Made by a program: the position numbers and the translations under genes. This document shows, in pieces, positions 1 through 15,455 of a stretch of DNA of 15,455 nucleotides. Where the stretch lies: NCBI GenBank assembly GCA_016840855.1, contig JAEORO010000215.1, positions 1 to 15,455 of the forward strand, in the 5' to 3' direction. This DNA comes from Candidatus Thorarchaeota archaeon (GTDB lineage: Archaea; Asgardarchaeota; Thorarchaeia; Thorarchaeales; Thorarchaeaceae). How positions within the stretch are numbered: position 1 is the first letter of the stretch; the number at the start of each line of letters is the position of its first letter. The notes below the pieces were generated by a model. It saw only the letters and a list, made by a program, of their open reading frames with translations, ran no database searches and was not told the DNA's origin.

Positions 1-673
1 AAATGTTGTTCATGATTGTGATATTAGGACACCAGTTGACTTGTAGAACTGCTGTGTCAAAGAAACAGTCATTCACAACTGCATTTTCACATGCTTGAAG
101 AGAAACTCTCATTGGAAACGTGGTTGCCTCACTTTCAAAAAAACTACATCCCGTAACATTACAAAAAGTTGAATCTACGAACTCAGCTGCTGCCCAATCA
201 TAGACAGTCACATAAGATTCCATCATGGCTATCTCATTACATTTATCGATTCTAATCCCTCGATATTCACTGTAAATTTCGCAATTGTCAATTGTCCCAT
301 TATCACAAGAAAGTAGTTTGATTGTGTAATTCAAGGCTGTTGGTTGAAGATGACAGCCTTTGACAGTAAAATGGACATCTACATTTCGGATTTCGATGCA
401 TATCTGTGAACTAGTGATGTTCAATCCTTCAATCATATAGGGGTTGATTTCTGAGCCGTTGCCTGGCCAGCCTTGGTCAATAAAGTCTTGATTGCTGCTG
501 ATGAAAATAGGTCCATGCGAAGTATAAGATGATTCAAAGTTCCTGGCTTCGTTCAACACTGTGAAGTATTGATTAGAAAATTTAGCATCAACTACTATGC
601 TATTTAAAATCAGCAATAGTGTGATGGATAGTAGACATAACCTTGTAGAATTTGGAGTCTTTCTTATCCCCAA
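1..673 (-). CDS. Secreted right-handed parallel beta-helix (NosD / pectin-lyase-like) protein, 5' part, runs off the left edge
   Basis: Not in the ORF track; hand-translated open frame from TTG at 673-671 to the window edge: MGIRKTPNSTRLCLLSITLLLILNSIVV (signal/TM)...HGPIFISSNQDFIDQGWPGNGSEINPYMIEGLNIT...IEIRNVDVHFTVKGC...NGTIDNCEI...NVTGCSF...NITIMNNI. The H-x-PI-x-I...GWPGNG-x3-PY-x-I motif and PbH1-like repeats are typical of archaeal NosD-like proteins. SD-like GGTGG at 687-683. Confidence 0.85.
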   Translation of the reverse strand, partial: MGIRKTPNSTRLCLLSITLLLILNSIVVDAKFSNQYFTVLNEARNFESSYTSHGPIFISSNQDFIDQGWPGNGSEINPYMIEGLNITSSQICIEIRNVDVHFTVKGCHLQPTALNYTIKLLSCDNGTIDNCEIYSEYRGIRIDKCNEIAMMESYVTVYDWAAAEFVDSTFCNVTGCSFFESEATTFPMRVSLQACENAVVNDCFFDTAVLQVNWCPNITIMNNI

Positions 674-1382: not shown

Positions 1383-1394
1383 GCAACCTTTAAT
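1383..1394 (+). promoter_or_regulatory. BRE/TATA promoter
   Basis: GCAACC-TTTAAT; the same GCAAC-then-TATA pattern recurs at 6802-6814. Predicted start about 1417-1420, at the first base of the hairpin RNA. Confidence 0.55.
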
Positions 1395-1419
1395 CGACGT
1401 TTGTCATTTTCAAGAGTAA

Positions 1420-1505
1420 GGCCAACGTAGAGAGAGAAAGACCTTAATGTGGGACTGGATGCGAAAGTCCTCTCTAAACCGGGTTTATGTTTCAAACCTT
1501 GGCCA
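1420..1505 (+). ncRNA. Putative ~86-nt structured RNA or 5' leader with tRNA-like junction geometry
   Basis: GGCCAA 1420-1425 / TTGGCC 1499-1504; TAGAGA 1428-1433 / TCTCTA 1471-1476; GGACT 1452-1456 / AGTCC 1466-1470; GGTTT 1482-1486 / AAACC 1494-1498 with a 7-nt loop. All four helices are Watson-Crick and mutually compatible. Confidence 0.6.
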
Positions 1506-1535
1506 GATCATCAGTATTATTGGAGACATGACTAT

Positions 1536-3356
1536 ATGCGTGTATATCTAGACGCGAACTTCTTCATATCGGGCTTTTCAGAGCGGCCTAAAGATGTGAC
1601 TATTGTGAAAAAGGCCGCAGACAACGCAGGTATGGAATTATGGATTACCCGACAGGTATTCCAAGAATTACGTTGGTACCTAAGGAGAGAGGCTGAGAAT
1701 ATTGTCCAGATTGATGAAACACTTTCAAAGGATATTAAATCCTTCATGGATAGCATCACTCGACCAGAAACCTCACTACCTCAACCAAACGATATGTCTC
1801 TAATTTTGGGTGCAATGCGAAACAAGAATTCGAAAATTGTCACGAGTGATATGAAATTACTAAACACAATTCAGGACTTGAAGGTTCCAGTTGAGGGAAT
1901 TGTTGGTTCAGCATTTGTTTTGGAATTGATGGAATCAGTCGAGGACGAGAAATTACAGAAAGACTTGTCAATTATTAGAGATCGTATTTACTCAGAAGAG
2001 GTCAGATATAGTATTGCTCGACAAGAGTCTTATGACCCAGTCACCAGGATACGCATTATAGAGGATCATGCACTTCGAGTTCTAAGAACAGTGAAGAGAC
2101 CGGCTGAAGGTCTCGATAGAAAACTGTCTAAGGGGCAACCACTTTTTGTGTTGGATTTTCTAGAGGATATCAAAGCTGATATCCCAAATATGTTCGATGA
2201 CTTCAGGGAAGGGAAGTATGACAGCCTTGCGCATGAAATTGAAGCAGTCCAGAATGAGATTGAGCGCTTATTGATAGTGTCAACACTAACAGAGGATAGC
2301 GAAACACATGGTCAGCTTGTCAGGCATGCATCAGACTTGACATTGTTCCTCTATTACCTTGAAGCAATTTGCCACTTATATCGTGGAACTCGACAGGGCA
2401 TTGAAGATGCTCTCACAATCAGTGATGAAGCATTTAGATTGCTAATGTTTGCAGAGGTGACTAACGATGAACTAAAAGCCACGGTATTCTTTGTCAGAAT
2501 TGTCCTTGCACTCATTAGAGAAGATTATGAAGAAATTGACTACTATTATAGCCTCTATGATAGTATGATAAATAGGATAGGACTCACAGATATGCTAGAG
2601 ACCTCAGAAGGCCTGTATATCACTATGCAAATCTTGAGGAAGTTCATGGGTGGTTTCAGTCTTACAAAGAACAAATTGCAGCATCCAGATGTAACAATGT
2701 CAATGCTTAATGACATAGCTAAATATTCAATCCAATTTGATGACCACGATAATGCTTGGCAATTAGCTGTAACAGCTTACAAGATAGGTGTTGCATATAA
2801 TAAAGAAGAAGGAGCACTCGGTTCCTTTTTGATGCTTTACAAGGTATCTTCTTCTTCTCACGATCGGTTCAAGCCAGCTCTTGAAAAAATTGCAGAACAT
2901 GCATTGAAGGCATTTGTAAAGAAGGGATGGAATACATCGCAAATCACACCAATACTAAATGAAATACAAGGGCAGTTTCCATCTATTGAAGGCATGGCAA
3001 CAAACGGTCCAGTGGATCAGGATAAGCTAAGGAAAGAACTGACAGGATGGATGGATGTTCTCTCAGTTGAAACCATTGATAATGTTGAGATGCTTGTGGT
3101 CAGGAATGACAAGTTACAGACTCGTATTGCAATTGCAGTTGGCAATCATCCAGATCTGGGTACACTCAAGACTGGTCACAAGGTAGCACTAACAAATGGT
3201 AGCTATGAAGTAACGGATGCAAATCCTGAAGTAGTCAAAAAGTATTCTGTAGTATTGATGATTACTCCAAGCGAAAGTGCAGAGATATCATTTGAAGGCG
3301 AATATGGATTTAGCTGTTTGAAGTTAGCTGAACCAGCTGCAGAAGCAAAATCATAG
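1536..3356 (+). CDS. PIN-domain ribonuclease fused to an alpha-helical (TPR-like) region and a C-terminal beta-rich (OB-like) domain
   Basis: Start re-called at ATG 1536 (GGAGA SD at 1522-1526). PIN motifs with all four acidic residues: RVYLDANFF, ITRQVFQEL, PNDMSLI, IVTSDMKL. Middle region is amphipathic helices (LYYLEAICHLYRG...IEDALTISDEAFRL; DNAWQLAVTAYKIG). Last ~110 aa are beta-strand-like (LKTGHKVALTNGSYEV). PIN is well supported; TPR and OB calls are inference. Confidence 0.8.
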   Translation: MRVYLDANFFISGFSERPKDVTIVKKAADNAGMELWITRQVFQELRWYLRREAENIVQIDETLSKDIKSFMDSITRPETSLPQPNDMSLILGAMRNKNSKIVTSDMKLLNTIQDLKVPVEGIVGSAFVLELMESVEDEKLQKDLSIIRDRIYSEEVRYSIARQESYDPVTRIRIIEDHALRVLRTVKRPAEGLDRKLSKGQPLFVLDFLEDIKADIPNMFDDFREGKYDSLAHEIEAVQNEIERLLIVSTLTEDSETHGQLVRHASDLTLFLYYLEAICHLYRGTRQGIEDALTISDEAFRLLMFAEVTNDELKATVFFVRIVLALIREDYEEIDYYYSLYDSMINRIGLTDMLETSEGLYITMQILRKFMGGFSLTKNKLQHPDVTMSMLNDIAKYSIQFDDHDNAWQLAVTAYKIGVAYNKEEGALGSFLMLYKVSSSSHDRFKPALEKIAEHALKAFVKKGWNTSQITPILNEIQGQFPSIEGMATNGPVDQDKLRKELTGWMDVLSVETIDNVEMLVVRNDKLQTRIAIAVGNHPDLGTLKTGHKVALTNGSYEVTDANPEVVKKYSVVLMITPSESAEISFEGEYGFSCLKLAEPAAEAKS

Positions 3357-3373: not shown

Positions 3374-3805
3374 TTGGATATACTGAGTTGGGCGATCTTA
3401 GTGATCGCTGTACTACTAGCTGCGGCGTTTAATTATTACTTAAATCTCGCACCAGGATCTGATCCCGAGGATTTTCAAGTTGGCCCTCCTCAACTTGGAA
3501 TAACATGCGACTGCCCTCTAAATATCTTGATTATTGGAGGAATCATTGCTCTGGCTCTTAGCTCAGTTTCTGGATTTTTTGATTCGAGAACAGAACTTGT
3601 TATTGTTGGAATTGCATCATTTAGTATAATCACTATCGCAGGATATATTGGTAGACGTCGAAGGCACCGAGAATGGAAAGAACTGCACAAAGCTATTGAG
3701 CGGTCCGTCCCGAGCACAGCTCTTGTAGGTTATGAAAGGACTCCAATGGATATTACATTCGAAGATGATGATGAAGACTTTGATGAGCACTTTGACGATT
3801 ACTAA
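3374..3805 (+). CDS. Hypothetical membrane protein (3 TM) with basic juxtamembrane patch and acidic tail
   Basis: TTG start 17 nt after the PIN gene stop; three hydrophobic segments, a CDCP motif, RRRRHR after TM3, C-terminal EDDDEDFDEHFDDY. Confidence 0.7.
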   Translation: MDILSWAILVIAVLLAAAFNYYLNLAPGSDPEDFQVGPPQLGITCDCPLNILIIGGIIALALSSVSGFFDSRTELVIVGIASFSIITIAGYIGRRRRHREWKELHKAIERSVPSTALVGYERTPMDITFEDDDEDFDEHFDDY

Positions 3806-4197: not shown

Positions 4198-4222
4198 TTA
4201 ACTACAACAAATATCTTACTTC

Positions 4223-4264
4223 TATTATATAATGGGAGAATACTGTGACCCATAGGTATTATAT
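4223..4264. promoter_or_regulatory. Divergent TATA boxes, probably leaderless transcripts
   Basis: Minus ATTATATAAT (~4233-4224) about 27 nt upstream of ATG 4197. Plus TATTATAT (4257-4264) about 27 nt upstream of ATG 4291. Confidence 0.55.
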
Positions 4265-4290
4265 CGTTTTTACCTAATTAGTCATTGAGA

Positions 4291-5406
4291 ATGACAACTC
4301 CAAATATCACTGAAGGAAGGATGATTTTCAAGGTCCTTGTGGTAGGCAATGACTTACCACTGCAAACAGGGTTTCTAAGTAGAGCATCTGGAGACCGTGT
4401 TTCCGCCCAATTGTATAATACGATTGGTTTGACTTTAGGAGTAGTGAAACTTGACTATCCAAAGAACCTAAGTGTCATTCTCCAACTATGGTCAATACCT
4501 TTCTCTGATAGATTGGAAGGACTATCTCGTTCTTTTACTAAAGGACATCGTGCAATCATCCTAATTCTAAAGCCAAATGAAATCGATGATGTACCTGAGA
4601 TGTTCAATCGCCTTTCTCTGAGTCAAGATACCTCCCTAATGGTGGTATTTATTGGATCTGTGAGAGAAGCAGAAGCAGCCGCATATCAATTAGATGCGTT
4701 CATCAAAGCTCAAATGCCTGTTCACGCGGTCCAAGACATTGAAGAAATAATCAGATATGTCGCAGATAGCCTATGTTCTAATAGCTCCTCGAAAAGTCCA
4801 CTTCCTATGATAGTTGCTCTTGACGAGCATGTTTGCCCTGTCTTTGAACCTGTTATTCCCGAACCACTAACTCCACCAAACTCAATTGAAGAAATCGATG
4901 AAATTCGGTCTATAGCAAATGAACTGGGACTTCGAATTGTCAATGAATCATGTGCAATTGAGCTAGATGAGGGAGTTTTATGGGTGTGCATGAAAACCAG
5001 TGCTATTCGGATGGAACCAGAGATTTGTCGACTTTGTTCACATAGATGTAAGAGACAGTCTAACATCTGTATTGTTGGAACTGATACAGGCTGGTCTTCA
5101 ACCAATCTTGGATCGCGAGCTTTGCTTACTGTGGCAAAGATCTATGCGCTTGCAGCAAGGATGTTGCCTTCTCATGTAAAGAAGCAAATTCAAAGAGCAA
5201 CAATCTGCACACGATTTGATCCAAATCCAGCAATACCAATCGAAGATATCCCAGATGAGATTCTTCTTGGTTTCAAGGAAATGGATTCAGGGAAGTCACT
5301 TCTCGAAGCAGCAAGAGCACGAGTTAATGATGGCAGACTTTCGAATGATGTTTTCAATATGCTAAAAAAGAAATTACATAACATTGATTCCTCCGTCAGT
5401 CATTGA
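4291..5406 (+). CDS. Degenerate Rab/Ras-like small-GTPase fold (pseudo-GTPase) with a C-terminal Cys-rich domain
   Basis: FKVLVVG, YNTIG, VILQLW, DRLEGLSRSFTKGHRAIILIL align by eye to Rab FKxxxxG, YxxTIG, xxLQIWDTAGQERF, xxSYYRGAxGIILV. P-loop GK[ST], DxxG and NKxD are absent. CRLCSHRC-x6-C in the C-terminal half. ATG 4291 preferred over TTG 4285. Confidence 0.7.
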   Translation: MTTPNITEGRMIFKVLVVGNDLPLQTGFLSRASGDRVSAQLYNTIGLTLGVVKLDYPKNLSVILQLWSIPFSDRLEGLSRSFTKGHRAIILILKPNEIDDVPEMFNRLSLSQDTSLMVVFIGSVREAEAAAYQLDAFIKAQMPVHAVQDIEEIIRYVADSLCSNSSSKSPLPMIVALDEHVCPVFEPVIPEPLTPPNSIEEIDEIRSIANELGLRIVNESCAIELDEGVLWVCMKTSAIRMEPEICRLCSHRCKRQSNICIVGTDTGWSSTNLGSRALLTVAKIYALAARMLPSHVKKQIQRATICTRFDPNPAIPIEDIPDEILLGFKEMDSGKSLLEAARARVNDGRLSNDVFNMLKKKLHNIDSSVSH

Positions 5407-11823: not shown

Positions 11824-14800
11824 CTAATCAAGATCAATGCCGAGGCTGCTCAGAAGAGCATCAAGATCAGCCTTTGAAAGACTCTTTGCTTCTTCTAAAA
11901 TGACATCAATCTCATCTACAGCCATTCCCTTCTTGATAAGTCTCTGGCGTAAATCCTCTAGCTCCTCAGGTCGTTGTGCAAGAGGAACTTCCTCAGGTGG
12001 AAGCTCGCGTGTCGGTGGTTTAGCCAGTACATCTGCACGACGGGCTCTCTCTTGATTGATGACCTCTTTGAGAAAGCCTGGACGTTCACTAGCTTTCATT
12101 CTAGCAAGATCAGCTCTAAATGCATCAATTTCAGAAGCGCCAAGACCTGTGATAGCAGCTAGCTCCTCAAGCAATTCATTGACTTCTGGAACTGTTGTTA
12201 TAATCGGATACTCTGCAACTTCACTCGGCTCTTTATTGAGTTTCATCGAATGAATTTCTTCATTCACTATCGCCATTGTTATATTCTGTCTACCTGCAAC
12301 ATGTGGAGGTCTTGGAATGCGGCCCTTAGCAAGAGCTCGAATCATTTTATTCATTTGTCTGATTTGCTTTGGTACACTCCATACTTTCACATAGGCGACG
12401 ATGAGTAAAGCGATGAGAATCAGAGCGGACCCGCCGCCAATTGTCAATAATTGTTGGAACTGCTGCTCTGCTGATATGTCAGACTTGATTATCAACACAA
12501 ATTGACGGGTTTCATAATCTTCCATCTGGAAGAATATGGTGACAGTGAAAGTCCTCCCAGTTTCTGCTCGAAACCACAGGGTGTATGTACCATCTTCATC
12601 AAGGGTTTGAGTTTCTAAGTAGGTTATGTTTTCATAGCTATATGATACAGAAATGTTTGCGTTGGAAATGCCAACTTGATGATCAAGATCGTAATATGTG
12701 ATAACAACAGGGAACGTTTCACCTGGAGAGGTATACACGGTATTGTTAGAATATAGCAGTATTGTATGTATTTGCCGGACTATGACGTCAAGATGAAGTG
12801 GTGCAATGGTATACTTCGTTGTTTCAAATGCAATATCAAAGCTATATGTCCCATATGGTAAATCTCCAGCTAAATTGAGTGAGTATGAGCCATTCACCAA
12901 AAGCTGAAGCTCAATGTCACCTAGTTGCGTTGAATATGCGGTTCCAATCACATCAATTATCGATGAGTTGTCTAAGAGGCTAATGACGTTGTAGATGATG
13001 CTAGTTTGATCATTAATTGGAATTGAATATTCAGTTGGACCTCGAATTTCTGCGGGAGTTGCATACACTTCTATTTTGGCTGTAACAGTTCTAGATGTGT
13101 AATTCGTTAGTGAAAATCTGACAACCAAGTCGTAAAGCCCAGGATTTTCGACATCAATTAGTACAGCAACCTCATATGATCCATTTGGATGAGAGGTGAC
13201 ATCAACTTCACTACCTTCCCAACTAGCAATTATATTGGCTCCAGTAACTAGAGAATTATGTTGAGTATCATTGTAATAGAACAAGTATGAAACTGTATCA
13301 CCGTAGTAGCCACTCTGGAGGATAGGTGTAGCAAATGCCTGTGTGGGAATGGGTAGAATAGTAATAACTATTGATTTGAGTGCAGTTGAGTACCCTGCTT
13401 TCACCGCAGTCATCCTTAGATAGATTGATTGAGAAGCTAGTGTACTTACATCAATCGTAACACTATAAGATCCATTTAATTCATCGATGAATGATCCACT
13501 GAGACTACCAATTGTATATGTGACATTGGCTCCAATGACCAGAACACCATGGAATGTATCATTATAGACAGCTCGTAACCATAATGTATCTCCAAAGAAG
13601 ACATAGCGGATAGACGTGCCATCAATCAATGCGACAGTGGTTGGAATTGGGACTATGTTAATATCAATTTCAGTTTCAATGAACTGGAGATTAGTAATAA
13701 CAGCTCTGATAATTACAGGATAATGACCAACTGCAAAACCTGTAACATCCACAGATCCTGAATACCAACCTGGAACGCCCGTAGGTGTCATGCTGAAAAC
13801 GGATCCATTCCACTCCAGTGTGGTAGTAGCACCAATAACTGGAGCATTTGTAATTGTGTTATTCAAATAAACTTCGAAATCGATTACATTGTTGATCACA
13901 GCTGTATATGTCGATTGATAAGGAATAATTTGGCCTGGAGCTTTTGAAACCACCATTGTGAATGATTTCTGTCTAGTCTGATAGAATTCACGCGATGCTG
14001 TGATTTGTGGACTGTAAATACCAAAATCTGAATCAGATGTGTCGAGAAGTAGGTAATAGAATCCATTACCAGCGTCAATGAAGGAATAGATCTCTCCATT
14101 CCATAGAAGAGTTGAGGTGAATCCGTCAACAAATGTCATGTAAAAGGGTTCTTGAATCCAGAAACTAATGTTGAGAATTTCACCCCAGTCAGCATAATAG
14201 GTTGATTTGGTGAGGACAATCTGGACAAGTTGTGCACCAGGCTGAACAGTAACTAAAGCTTGAGCGGTTTGGAAGAAGGGCTTTACAGCAGTAACTGTGA
14301 AAATATATTGTTGAGCAAGTAGACCGATTGTTTCCAGTGTGAGCGAGTAAGTCCCATCGCCAGTTTCATTCCAGTCAAATGAGTTCCCGGTTATATCAGT
14401 CCAATCAGAATCAATTATAGCTCCCTCGAGAGAAACATCATGATCAAAATCAATCAATGTTAGAACAACGATAATGTCAACGCCGATAGCTGTTGATCCA
14501 GCTGGTGGAGCCTCCGCGATTAATGATGTTTGAACCTGTCGTATCTGAGCTCGAATATTCAGTGCATCTCTATTTGAGTAGAATGGCACACCACTCCAAG
14601 AGAATGAGATATTGAAATACACTGAGCCGGTTGACCCAAACACAGTAGTATTCACAAGTAATTGATAGGCACCATTCCCTAGTCTGACTACTTGATACAT
14701 GGGACTCGACCAGTTGGTTGAGGACAATGTAACCATTGCTCCATCTATTCCAGCCCCTGAGAGGTAGTCTTTGAACTGAAGATTAATGGTGATGTTATCA

Positions 14801-15455
14801 AAGTAGGGAGTTTCTTCTACGAGTGGGAATAGAATAACCGTTGAGCGATAGGTAGTAGCTGCTGAGGTTGTTGTGTTTCTATCAGCATAATAAGGAGATC
14901 CAGAATTCCAATCAATGGATAATTGGATTTCATGACTTGAAACGAGATTGAGAGCATCAAGGACAGTTGAGTTGAAACTGATCTGGTAGTATGATCCAAA
15001 GTTAACAAGACGATACCAGCCAGAAGTAATCAGAGTGTGGGAAGATCCATGACTAAGTGTAATTTGACTCTTCCCAATAGTAATGAACGACTTGGTCAAA
15101 AAGTCTTCAAAGACAAAACTGAATGTAACATTTTCAAGGAAGGGAGTGTTACCTGGCGTCTTGATTATCCGTATCTGCGTAGGACGCTCAACAACGTTTG
15201 CTGAGATTGTTCTTAAAGAAGAACGATAATAAGGCGCTCCACTAAATGAAACAGATACATTGAGTTGATAGGTATCCGGAGGACCGAGAGCCGATGTATC
15301 GACTTCAATCAGGTATTCACCAAGCCCATTATCCGTAACCCAATAATCAGCTCCAAGCACTAGAGTGAGTGGATCACTACTAACTTGTACTGTTGCTCCA
15401 GAGATTCCTGTTCCGGTTGTGTCATCGCTGTAAGTAATTGTAAATGTTAGAATAG
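11824..15455 (-). CDS. Giant cell-surface protein with tandem ~100-aa Ig-like beta-sandwich repeats, one C-terminal TM and a ~185-aa cytoplasmic tail; 5' end outside the window
   Basis: Frame stays open from 15360 to the right edge (ILTFTITYSDDTTGTGISGATVQV...). Recurrent Y-x-D...I-x-GA-x-V...[DG]NG-x-Y-x-L...G-x-Y units; many N-x-S/T sequons; TM LLTIGGGSALILIALLIVAYVKVW at about 12450-12379. Confidence 0.88.
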   Translation of the reverse strand, partial: ILTFTITYSDDTTGTGISGATVQVSSDPLTLVLGADYWVTDNGLGEYLIEVDTSALGPPDTYQLNVSVSFSGAPYYRSSLRTISANVVERPTQIRIIKTPGNTPFLENVTFSFVFEDFLTKSFITIGKSQITLSHGSSHTLITSGWYRLVNFGSYYQISFNSTVLDALNLVSSHEIQLSIDWNSGSPYYADRNTTTSAATTYRSTVILFPLVEETPYFDNITINLQFKDYLSGAGIDGAMVTLSSTNWSSPMYQVVRLGNGAYQLLVNTTVFGSTGSVYFNISFSWSGVPFYSNRDALNIRAQIRQVQTSLIAEAPPAGSTAIGVDIIVVLTLIDFDHDVSLEGAIIDSDWTDITGNSFDWNETGDGTYSLTLETIGLLAQQYIFTVTAVKPFFQTAQALVTVQPGAQLVQIVLTKSTYYADWGEILNISFWIQEPFYMTFVDGFTSTLLWNGEIYSFIDAGNGFYYLLLDTSDSDFGIYSPQITASREFYQTRQKSFTMVVSKAPGQIIPYQSTYTAVINNVIDFEVYLNNTITNAPVIGATTTLEWNGSVFSMTPTGVPGWYSGSVDVTGFAVGHYPVIIRAVITNLQFIETEIDINIVPIPTTVALIDGTSIRYVFFGDTLWLRAVYNDTFHGVLVIGANVTYTIGSLSGSFIDELNGSYSVTIDVSTLASQSIYLRMTAVKAGYSTALKSIVITILPIPTQAFATPILQSGYYGDTVSYLFYYNDTQHNSLVTGANIIASWEGSEVDVTSHPNGSYEVAVLIDVENPGLYDLVVRFSLTNYTSRTVTAKIEVYATPAEIRGPTEYSIPINDQTSIIYNVISLLDNSSIIDVIGTAYSTQLGDIELQLLVNGSYSLNLAGDLPYGTYSFDIAFETTKYTIAPLHLDVIVRQIHTILLYSNNTVYTSPGETFPVVITYYDLDHQVGISNANISVSYSYENITYLETQTLDEDGTYTLWFRAETGRTFTVTIFFQMEDYETRQFVLIIKSDISAEQQFQQLLTIGGGSALILIALLIVAYVKVWSVPKQIRQMNKMIRALAKGRIPRPPHVAGRQNITMAIVNEEIHSMKLNKEPSEVAEYPIITTVPEVNELLEELAAITGLGASEIDAFRADLARMKASERPGFLKEVINQERARRADVLAKPPTRELPPEEVPLAQRPEELEDLRQRLIKKGMAVDEIDVILEEAKSLSKADLDALLSSLGIDLD

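Follow-up and report, generated by a model that had tools for sequence, protein, structure and literature searches.

This locus raises the question of what is encoded between positions 1378 and 1535 of the window, the whole 15,455-nt stretch of Candidatus Thorarchaeota DNA that was analysed, directly in front of a gene for a PIN-like protein. The initial annotation had described here an 86-nt RNA with tRNA-like geometry and proposed that it is either a processed small RNA or an autoregulatory leader. Judged by comparison with orthologous loci, the region is a real, conserved and undescribed upstream element, though not for the reason given there. Its most conserved feature, a 17-nt sequence referred to as motif 2, lies inside an 18-nt "bulge" of the proposed fold and had been overlooked. 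Searches of the literature on Asgard transcription start sites and TATA and BRE elements, on Thorarchaeota PIN domains and on covariation in Asgard noncoding RNAs yielded nothing on either the element or the protein, and those passages of PMC12993045 that matched by term contained nothing on Asgard promoter motifs.

The downstream gene and its start

The gene occupies positions 1536-3356 of the + strand and encodes a protein of 606 residues with an N-terminal PIN-like domain, a helical (TPR-like) repeat and a C-terminal beta-strand, possibly OB-like, domain. Its homologues come almost exclusively from Thorarchaeota (Asgard archaea), the best matches being 95% identical, and at least 120 clusters with 69% identity or more to the protein are found among the matches listed. 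The family is small, with 60 representatives at E ≤0.001 among 1.84 billion proteins, and the element accordingly precedes a narrowly distributed nuclease-like protein. Nearly all homologues are 602-606 residues long and begin with MRVYLDANFF, which identifies ATG 1536 as the gene start and GTG 1449 as an artefact; the few longer homologues carry unrelated extensions. The ORF listing does extend the coding sequence to GTG 1449, a start that the initial annotation rightly mistrusted. A protein extension from GTG 1449 is without conservation among the homologues and was rejected; the 29-residue extension named there as a point to check is not a conserved one, and the frame of the upstream AUG is interrupted in close relatives. 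Recognition of the element also corrects the start that ORF calling places at GTG 1449.

The PIN assignment is suggested by a match to Pfam PIN_12 (PF16289) over residues 3-88 (27.4 bits, E 5.3e-6), which is below the gathering cut-off of 32, and by a precomputed PF16289 label on many of the homologues. Asp6, Glu44, Asp86 and Asp105 are invariant among 18 aligned sequences, and we take them to be the putative PIN catalytic positions. The AlphaFold model (pLDDT 76.3, pTM 0.65, with pLDDT of 41-85 within the PIN-like domain) consists of three parts, an N-terminal alpha/beta domain, a helical repeat (approximately residues 138-477) and a C-terminal beta-strand domain (approximately 506-588). Foldseek comparison with the PDB returned matches that are all weak (E >0.01), to TTC5 (TPR-plus-OB), the TPR of LGN, the OB domain of RPA and the PIN structures SSO1118, VapC and HARP, the latter three with target-normalised TM-scores of 0.63, 0.55 and 0.50, respectively. 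A profile search of the PDB sequences with the 606-residue protein gave no matches and neither did NCBIfam, while the ESM Atlas contained only unnamed archaeal clusters, a few of them with TPR labels. On the same strand, a 143-residue ORF (3374-3805) begins 18 nt past the stop codon of the PIN gene and may be co-transcribed; the sole family signal in it is a weak match to the SLATT domain (13.5 bits where 41 are required, E 0.051).

Upstream layout and motif 2

A single scan of genome contigs yielded 61 loci, all from Thorarchaeota-type MAGs, and the 60 of them that contain the gene start make up, together with the window, 61 upstream regions; the window and 12 of the loci form a close clade of 13 sequences. 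The same order of elements is found across the upstream regions, namely motif 1, a variable spacer, a conserved block with motif 2 and a Shine-Dalgarno sequence, and the distances to the ATG are kept at about -152 for motif 1, -100 for motif 2 and -14 for the Shine-Dalgarno sequence. The proteins encoded downstream are 67-95% identical; the sequence between motif 1, motif 2 and the Shine-Dalgarno sequence diverges completely. The whole arrangement evidently belongs to the PIN gene, because either strand can carry the closest upstream ORF (+ in 27 loci and - in 29), which is separated by 65-1243 nt.

In the window, motif 1 is a promoter-like BRE/TATA element, GAATCGCAACCTTTAATCG, at 1378-1396 of the + strand (column identity 0.96 in the close clade), with TTTAAT at 1389-1394. 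It is followed by a poorly conserved spacer of about 20 nt at 1397-1417 (0.70), which corresponds to the expected TATA-to-start distance, by the conserved block at 1418-1507 (0.81-0.98), by a variable linker that leads from the structured block to the Shine-Dalgarno sequence (1508-1521; 0.64 over 1508-1520) and by the Shine-Dalgarno-like GGAGAC at 1522-1527, all on the + strand. Among the 13 close relatives column identity within the block is 0.93 for 1418-1435, 0.98 for motif 2, 0.82 for 1450-1473, 0.81 for 1474-1498 and again 0.98 for 1499-1507, and reaches 0.89 from the Shine-Dalgarno sequence to the ATG. The GGAG is invariant in these 13 sequences and is present about 14 nt before the ATG in almost all of the 61 upstream regions. 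The span of 1420-1505 delimited in the initial annotation thus coincides with a discrete conserved block. No terminator was found on the + strand between 1000 and 1800.

A strict pattern for motif 1 is matched in 50 of the 61 upstream regions, in 47 of these at 142-165 nt before the ATG, and variants of the motif occur in most of the regions that the strict pattern misses. The TTTAAT of the initial annotation is part of this promoter-like motif. Elements of the form AAC-C/G-TT-W-T-TC, which are like motif 1, also precede other genes of these loci at a distance of 40-50 nt, a comparison made by reading the upstream regions of those genes and qualitative only. Because of these similar elements, and because motif 1 is retained in all five upstream regions that are without motif 2, motif 1 appears to be the likelier universal promoter.

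Several variations on this layout were seen. A box of the ACTCTTAAATC type recurs 45-50 nt before the ATG of a conserved upstream neighbour gene of 380-490 residues (in L037, L041, L046, L048, L053, L055, L057 and other loci) and provides a picture of ordinary Thorarchaeota promoters. In L013, L014, L032 and L039 motif 1 begins with GGAACC and 17-19 nt further on GGTTCC is found (GGCTCC in L032); the inverted repeat, which is absent in the clade of the window, spans the TATA-like box together with the expected start site and is a possible operator. L032 and L039 are without motif 2 and have motif 1 only 98 and 74 nt before the ATG, respectively, which makes for a shorter leader, and L045 and L049 have motif 1 at the usual distance and no recognisable motif 2. 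L050 and L061, both labelled as MAG isolate CSMAG_407, carry different copies of the gene (67% and 77% identical to the query), both preceded by an exact motif 2; the copies may be paralogues or stem from a mixed bin.

Motif 2 (1433-1449, + strand) reads AGAGAAAGACCTTAATG in the window, has the consensus AGCGAAAGACCTTAATG and is conserved phylum-wide. Its 14-mer GAAAGACCTTAATG (1436-1449) always lies 85-116 nt before the ATG and, among the 61 upstream regions, is found without mismatches in 29, with one mismatch in 6, three in 10, four in 6 and five in 5, the motif being absent (six or more mismatches) in the remaining 5. At a constant position it is thus recognised with at most four mismatches in 51 of 61 regions and with at most five in 56. 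A degenerate pattern of the motif has exactly one match per locus in 27 loci and none elsewhere in their flanks of about 7 kb, and the window holds no second copy beyond chance, as the only other match has three mismatches. The motif is invariant at AA and TT-W-AT, varies freely at the three positions separating its halves and, in its T/A core, changes only by A/T exchanges (TTAAT, TTTAT, TATAT and TAAAT). The distance from motif 1 is nearly fixed, at about 40-42 nt in most lineages, and the two motifs resemble each other (ACCTTTAAT in motif 2 against ACCTTAAT in motif 1), as well as other promoter-like elements nearby (CTCTTAAATC and AACCTTATTC).

A leader peptide starting from the AUG at the end of motif 2 was considered and rejected. 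Relative to the gene its frame varies among 48 regions, with 22 in frame 2, 19 in frame 1 and 7 in frame 0; the upstream ORF spans 1-54 codons, is open for more than 80 codons in 2 regions, reaches the Shine-Dalgarno sequence in 16 of the 48 and in several of the closest relatives is no longer than 1-5 codons. In L040 the AUG of motif 2 shares the frame of the gene without an intervening stop, from which gene callers could derive a 29-residue N-terminal extension like that of the 635-residue entry P0004. Also in the window, positions 1461-1470, which form the loop and 3′ strand of a hairpin described below, read GCGAAAGTCC and resemble the 5′ half of the motif 2 consensus, AGCGAAAGACC, which is carried by other clades; in the clade of the window motif 2 begins with AGAGAAAG. 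The resemblance could be due to a partial duplicate of motif 2 or to chance.

Folding of the conserved block

The pairings listed in the initial annotation are all present in the window, with GGCCAA at 1420-1425 opposite TTGGCC at 1499-1504 followed by A1505, TAGAGA at 1428-1433 opposite TCTCTA at 1471-1476, GGACT at 1452-1456 opposite AGTCC at 1466-1470, and GGTTT at 1482-1486 opposite AAACC at 1494-1498 around the loop ATGTTTC. Its distances hold as well, G1420 lying 26 nt after TTTAAT and the GGAG at 1522-1525 beginning 16 nt past the end of the fold. The free energy of this structure is -20.6 kcal/mol versus -27.5 kcal/mol for the minimum free energy structure, and the sole robust helix of the ensemble is the terminal stem, or closing helix P1 (1420-1425/1499-1504), with pair probabilities of 0.94-1.00. 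The GGACT/AGTCC hairpin with its 9-nt loop, which makes up the inner arm (1452-1470), has a probability of about 0.21, and the extension of the long arm by TAGAGA/TCTCTA and the "T-arm" (1482-1498) have probabilities of about 0.00 and 0.00, respectively. For the span 1420-1506 the folding z-score is -2.58, a single one of 200 shuffles doing equally well; the antisense strand scores -1.04. It is -0.72, a value without significance, over the whole putative leader (1418-1540) and -0.09 over 1383-1535. The z-score, which the initial annotation had named among its possible refutations, thus depends on the chosen ends, and the low value holds only when these are matched to the terminal stem.

Nor was the fold as a whole confirmed as a conserved one. 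In the 13 close relatives 83.4% of the pairs of the fold are formed versus 83.2% in shuffles (220 of 500 reach the observed value), and covariation amounts to 0.047 versus 0.047 (258 of 500), so that the covariation proposed as a check does not rise above chance in this clade. P1 is paired in 97.4% of the cells with an almost invariant sequence, and the GGACT/AGTCC hairpin in 84.4%, without compensatory changes. The T-arm is paired in 70.3% of the cells, one of its pairs (67-81) forming in 2 of the 13 sequences, and is replaced by unrelated sequence in L007, L011 and every other lineage; RNAalifold applied to the close clade favours a different interior altogether. A covariance model built on the 13 relatives, which comprises the terminal stem, the long arm and the inner hairpin, recovers its source sequences (E up to 3e-16), but the next match, in L052, has E 0.39, and other clades are matched only at E 0.48-8.3 among matches at unrelated places, two of which score E 0.48 and 3.3 and mark the noise level. 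By this model, the fold sought upstream of orthologues is found in the 13 closest loci only, and the tRNA-like geometry is thus peculiar to this one sequence and does not represent a conserved design. The L052 sequence (2904-2979) is a shortened version of the element, which retains the closing helix (GGCC...GGCC) and inner hairpin, has a degenerate motif 2 and lacks the region of the T-arm.

The same data bear on the possibility of a tRNA-like RNA or tRNA relic composed of an acceptor-like stem, a variable-loop-like linker and a T-arm. The likeness exists in the named pairings and spacings of this one sequence, where a 6-bp terminal stem is followed by an unpaired A and a stem of 5 bp with a loop of 7 nt directly adjoins the 3′ strand. 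In contrast to tRNA, there are no D or anticodon arms, and the T-loop consensus is missing from the loop, as was conceded from the outset; the T-arm is not favoured thermodynamically, and its conservation fails even among the closest relatives. ARAGORN detected no tRNA or tmRNA genes in the window or in 60 orthologous loci, in agreement with the initial statement that the RNA is not a tRNA, and of the 4227 models of Rfam release 15 none was matched at or above its gathering threshold, either in the window or in 19 orthologous loci. The best sub-threshold match was leuA-Halobacteria, with 13.4 bits (E 3.4) where 47.9 are required; when E values of up to 10 were allowed there were four weak matches within 1200-1700, none of them near threshold, and nothing tRNA or tRNA-like in the window. 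As a conserved feature a tRNA-like RNA is already refuted, and the reading as a whole is highly improbable.

A modest structural signal is seen across the lineages. Segments spanning motif 2 have a mean z-score of -0.95 relative to dinucleotide shuffles (n=55, 16% below -2), compared to -0.10 for coding controls (n=106, 2% below -2) and 0.00 for what lies downstream of motif 2. The complementarity of the 20 nt preceding motif 2 to the stretch located 24-60 nt ahead of the ATG is higher within the same locus than between different loci, with permutation p-values of 0.010 by duplex energy (26 representatives) and 0.002 by an ungapped helix score (25 representatives), the representatives in both tests being not fully independent; helix scores of at least 5.5 were reached by 10 of 25 matched and 134 of 600 mismatched pairs. 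Duplex z-scores of single sequences against shuffles of the 3′ window are weak, mostly -0.3 to -2.5, and have been superseded by the matched versus mismatched comparison. Lineage-specific helices are found in similar places, GGCCAA/TTGGCC, TCCAAGT/ACTTGGG, AGTTCAAGG/CCTTGGATT, TGCTGAG/CTCAGCA, AGCAGAG/CTCTGCT and AAATAGTG/TGCTATTT among them, and several of these contain G-T pairs, which fits an RNA transcribed from the + strand and not a palindrome in DNA. Within one clade CAAGG/CCTTG corresponds to CTAAGG/CCTTAG, with both sides changed. The closing helix is missing or not clearly recognisable in 15 of the 25 lineage representatives. A secondary structure shared by all lineages was rejected, as RNAalifold run per clade gives a different partner of motif 2 in each clade and no partner sequence consistent between lineages was found. 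Nor is motif 2 preferentially unpaired in the predicted ensembles (0.46 versus 0.50, Wilcoxon p 0.08), and a conserved hairpin right after it was likewise rejected, with a mean z-score of -0.07 versus shuffles in 24 lineage representatives.

Candidate functions of the element

With a probability of roughly one half, positions 1378-1535 would represent a conserved promoter and a cis-acting structured 5′ leader of the Thorarchaeota gene for the PIN/helical-repeat/beta-strand protein, with motif 2 as a sequence-specific recognition site. Transcription would start about 24-26 nt past the TATA-like box of motif 1, at a predicted site near 1417-1421, and the resulting leader of about 115 nt would fold into a domain closed by the short long-range helix 1420-1425/1499-1504, whose strands are complementary and whose function as a closure is presumed. 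This domain would carry motif 2 (1433-1449) near its 5′ side, where it would most likely be read as a sequence by a trans-acting factor, because no constant pairing partner accounts for its conservation. As the domain is followed by the variable linker and the Shine-Dalgarno sequence, the element would act in cis on translation or stability of the mRNA.

In favour of the leader are the layout, which is kept across the 61 upstream regions while the intervening sequence diverges, the fact that the element travels with the gene whichever strand the upstream ORF is on, the better than shuffled folding of segments spanning motif 2, the same-locus complementarity and the lack of a conserved upstream ORF. 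The reading is weakened by the lack of covariation in close relatives and the confinement of the covariance model to 13 loci, by the closing helix being unclear in 15 of 25 representatives, by the modest z-scores and missing signal for a hairpin after the motif, and by the likeness of motif 2 itself to a BRE/TATA element. The last point leads to the main, though less probable, alternative, in which motif 2 is a second core promoter (BRE-like CGAAAG with TATA-like CTTAAT/CTTTAT) or an adjacent operator, and transcription starts near 1470-1477. The RNA of the initial annotation would then be split and not be one molecule, and the block would consist of promoter architecture and factor-binding sites. 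Such a function would agree with the resemblance of motif 2 to motif 1 and to other promoter-like elements in these loci, with a core that, as in a TATA box, changes by A/T exchanges alone around invariant AA and TT-W-AT, with the free variation at the three positions between its halves, with the nearly fixed spacing of the two motifs, and with the lack of a constant RNA partner and modest RNA-level signals. However, the five upstream regions that lack motif 2 keep motif 1, which excludes motif 2 as the sole promoter, and its conservation over 17 nt far exceeds that of the other promoter-like elements here. Moreover, conservation is higher over the 24 nt following motif 2 (0.82) than over the spacer behind motif 1 (0.70), which is not expected of an untranscribed TATA-to-start spacer, and the same-locus complementarity, lineage-specific helices and G-T pairs require both sides to be in one RNA.

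That motif 1 drives an independent or processed small RNA of about 86 nt (1420-1505), which would be freed from the leader and act in trans, is very unlikely. The sharp borders of the conserved block do coincide with the closing helix, and for exactly this span the sense z-score of -2.58 stands against -1.04 in antisense, but beyond this nothing was found in favour of a processed species: the element always accompanies the gene, being located only directly upstream of it and once per locus, its single additional match in the window is at chance level, no terminator-like T-run lies between 1505 and the Shine-Dalgarno sequence, and it is outside every Rfam family. Of the two proposals of the initial annotation, a leader of the downstream gene has therefore become the best-supported reading, while the separate small RNA is not supported. 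Feedback by the nuclease encoded by the gene itself would be one conjectural possibility for a leader. An autoregulatory RNA across Thorarchaeota, in which the downstream nuclease would bind or cut its own mRNA and motif 2, presented in the helix-closed domain, would be a recognition sequence or a mimic of the natural substrate, is rather improbable; if true, motif 2 would lead straight to what an uncharacterised nuclease family of narrow archaeal range targets in the cell.

A leader of this kind would be reminiscent of the protein-binding autoregulatory mRNA leaders, such as those of ribosomal proteins in bacteria and archaea, in that a structured element is fixed in the 5′ UTR of one gene before the Shine-Dalgarno sequence and a short, highly conserved sequence is presented by lineage-variable helices. 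It differs from the ribosomal-protein leaders in that the gene encodes an uncharacterised PIN-family protein and in that the element is known from sequence, with weak covariation support. Motifs 1 and 2 share with archaeal BRE/TATA core promoters a purine-rich stretch followed by a T/A-rich box, and the distance of 24-26 nt from motif 1 to the conserved block is as expected, whereas motif 2 is about 100 nt from the ATG and the boxes of other genes here are at 40-50 nt. If the leader exists as proposed, it would be a previously undescribed cis-regulatory element of Asgard archaea that is absent from Rfam 15; as a second promoter, motif 2 would form part of an unusually conserved tandem promoter/operator, of interest mainly for Asgard transcription. 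Motif 2 provides a concrete handle for binding, cleavage and promoter assays.

Elsewhere in the window, a 1178-residue ORF on the - strand (11824-15360) has no match in Pfam or NCBIfam, and a partial ORF at 2-673 (- strand) matches a beta-helix repeat. Upstream of a gene for 373 residues (4285-5406), the interval 4198-4284 contains the conserved motif CCCATAGGTATTA, here within GACCCATAGGTATTATATC, which is also present between these two divergent genes in many loci; a role as promoter or operator is probable.
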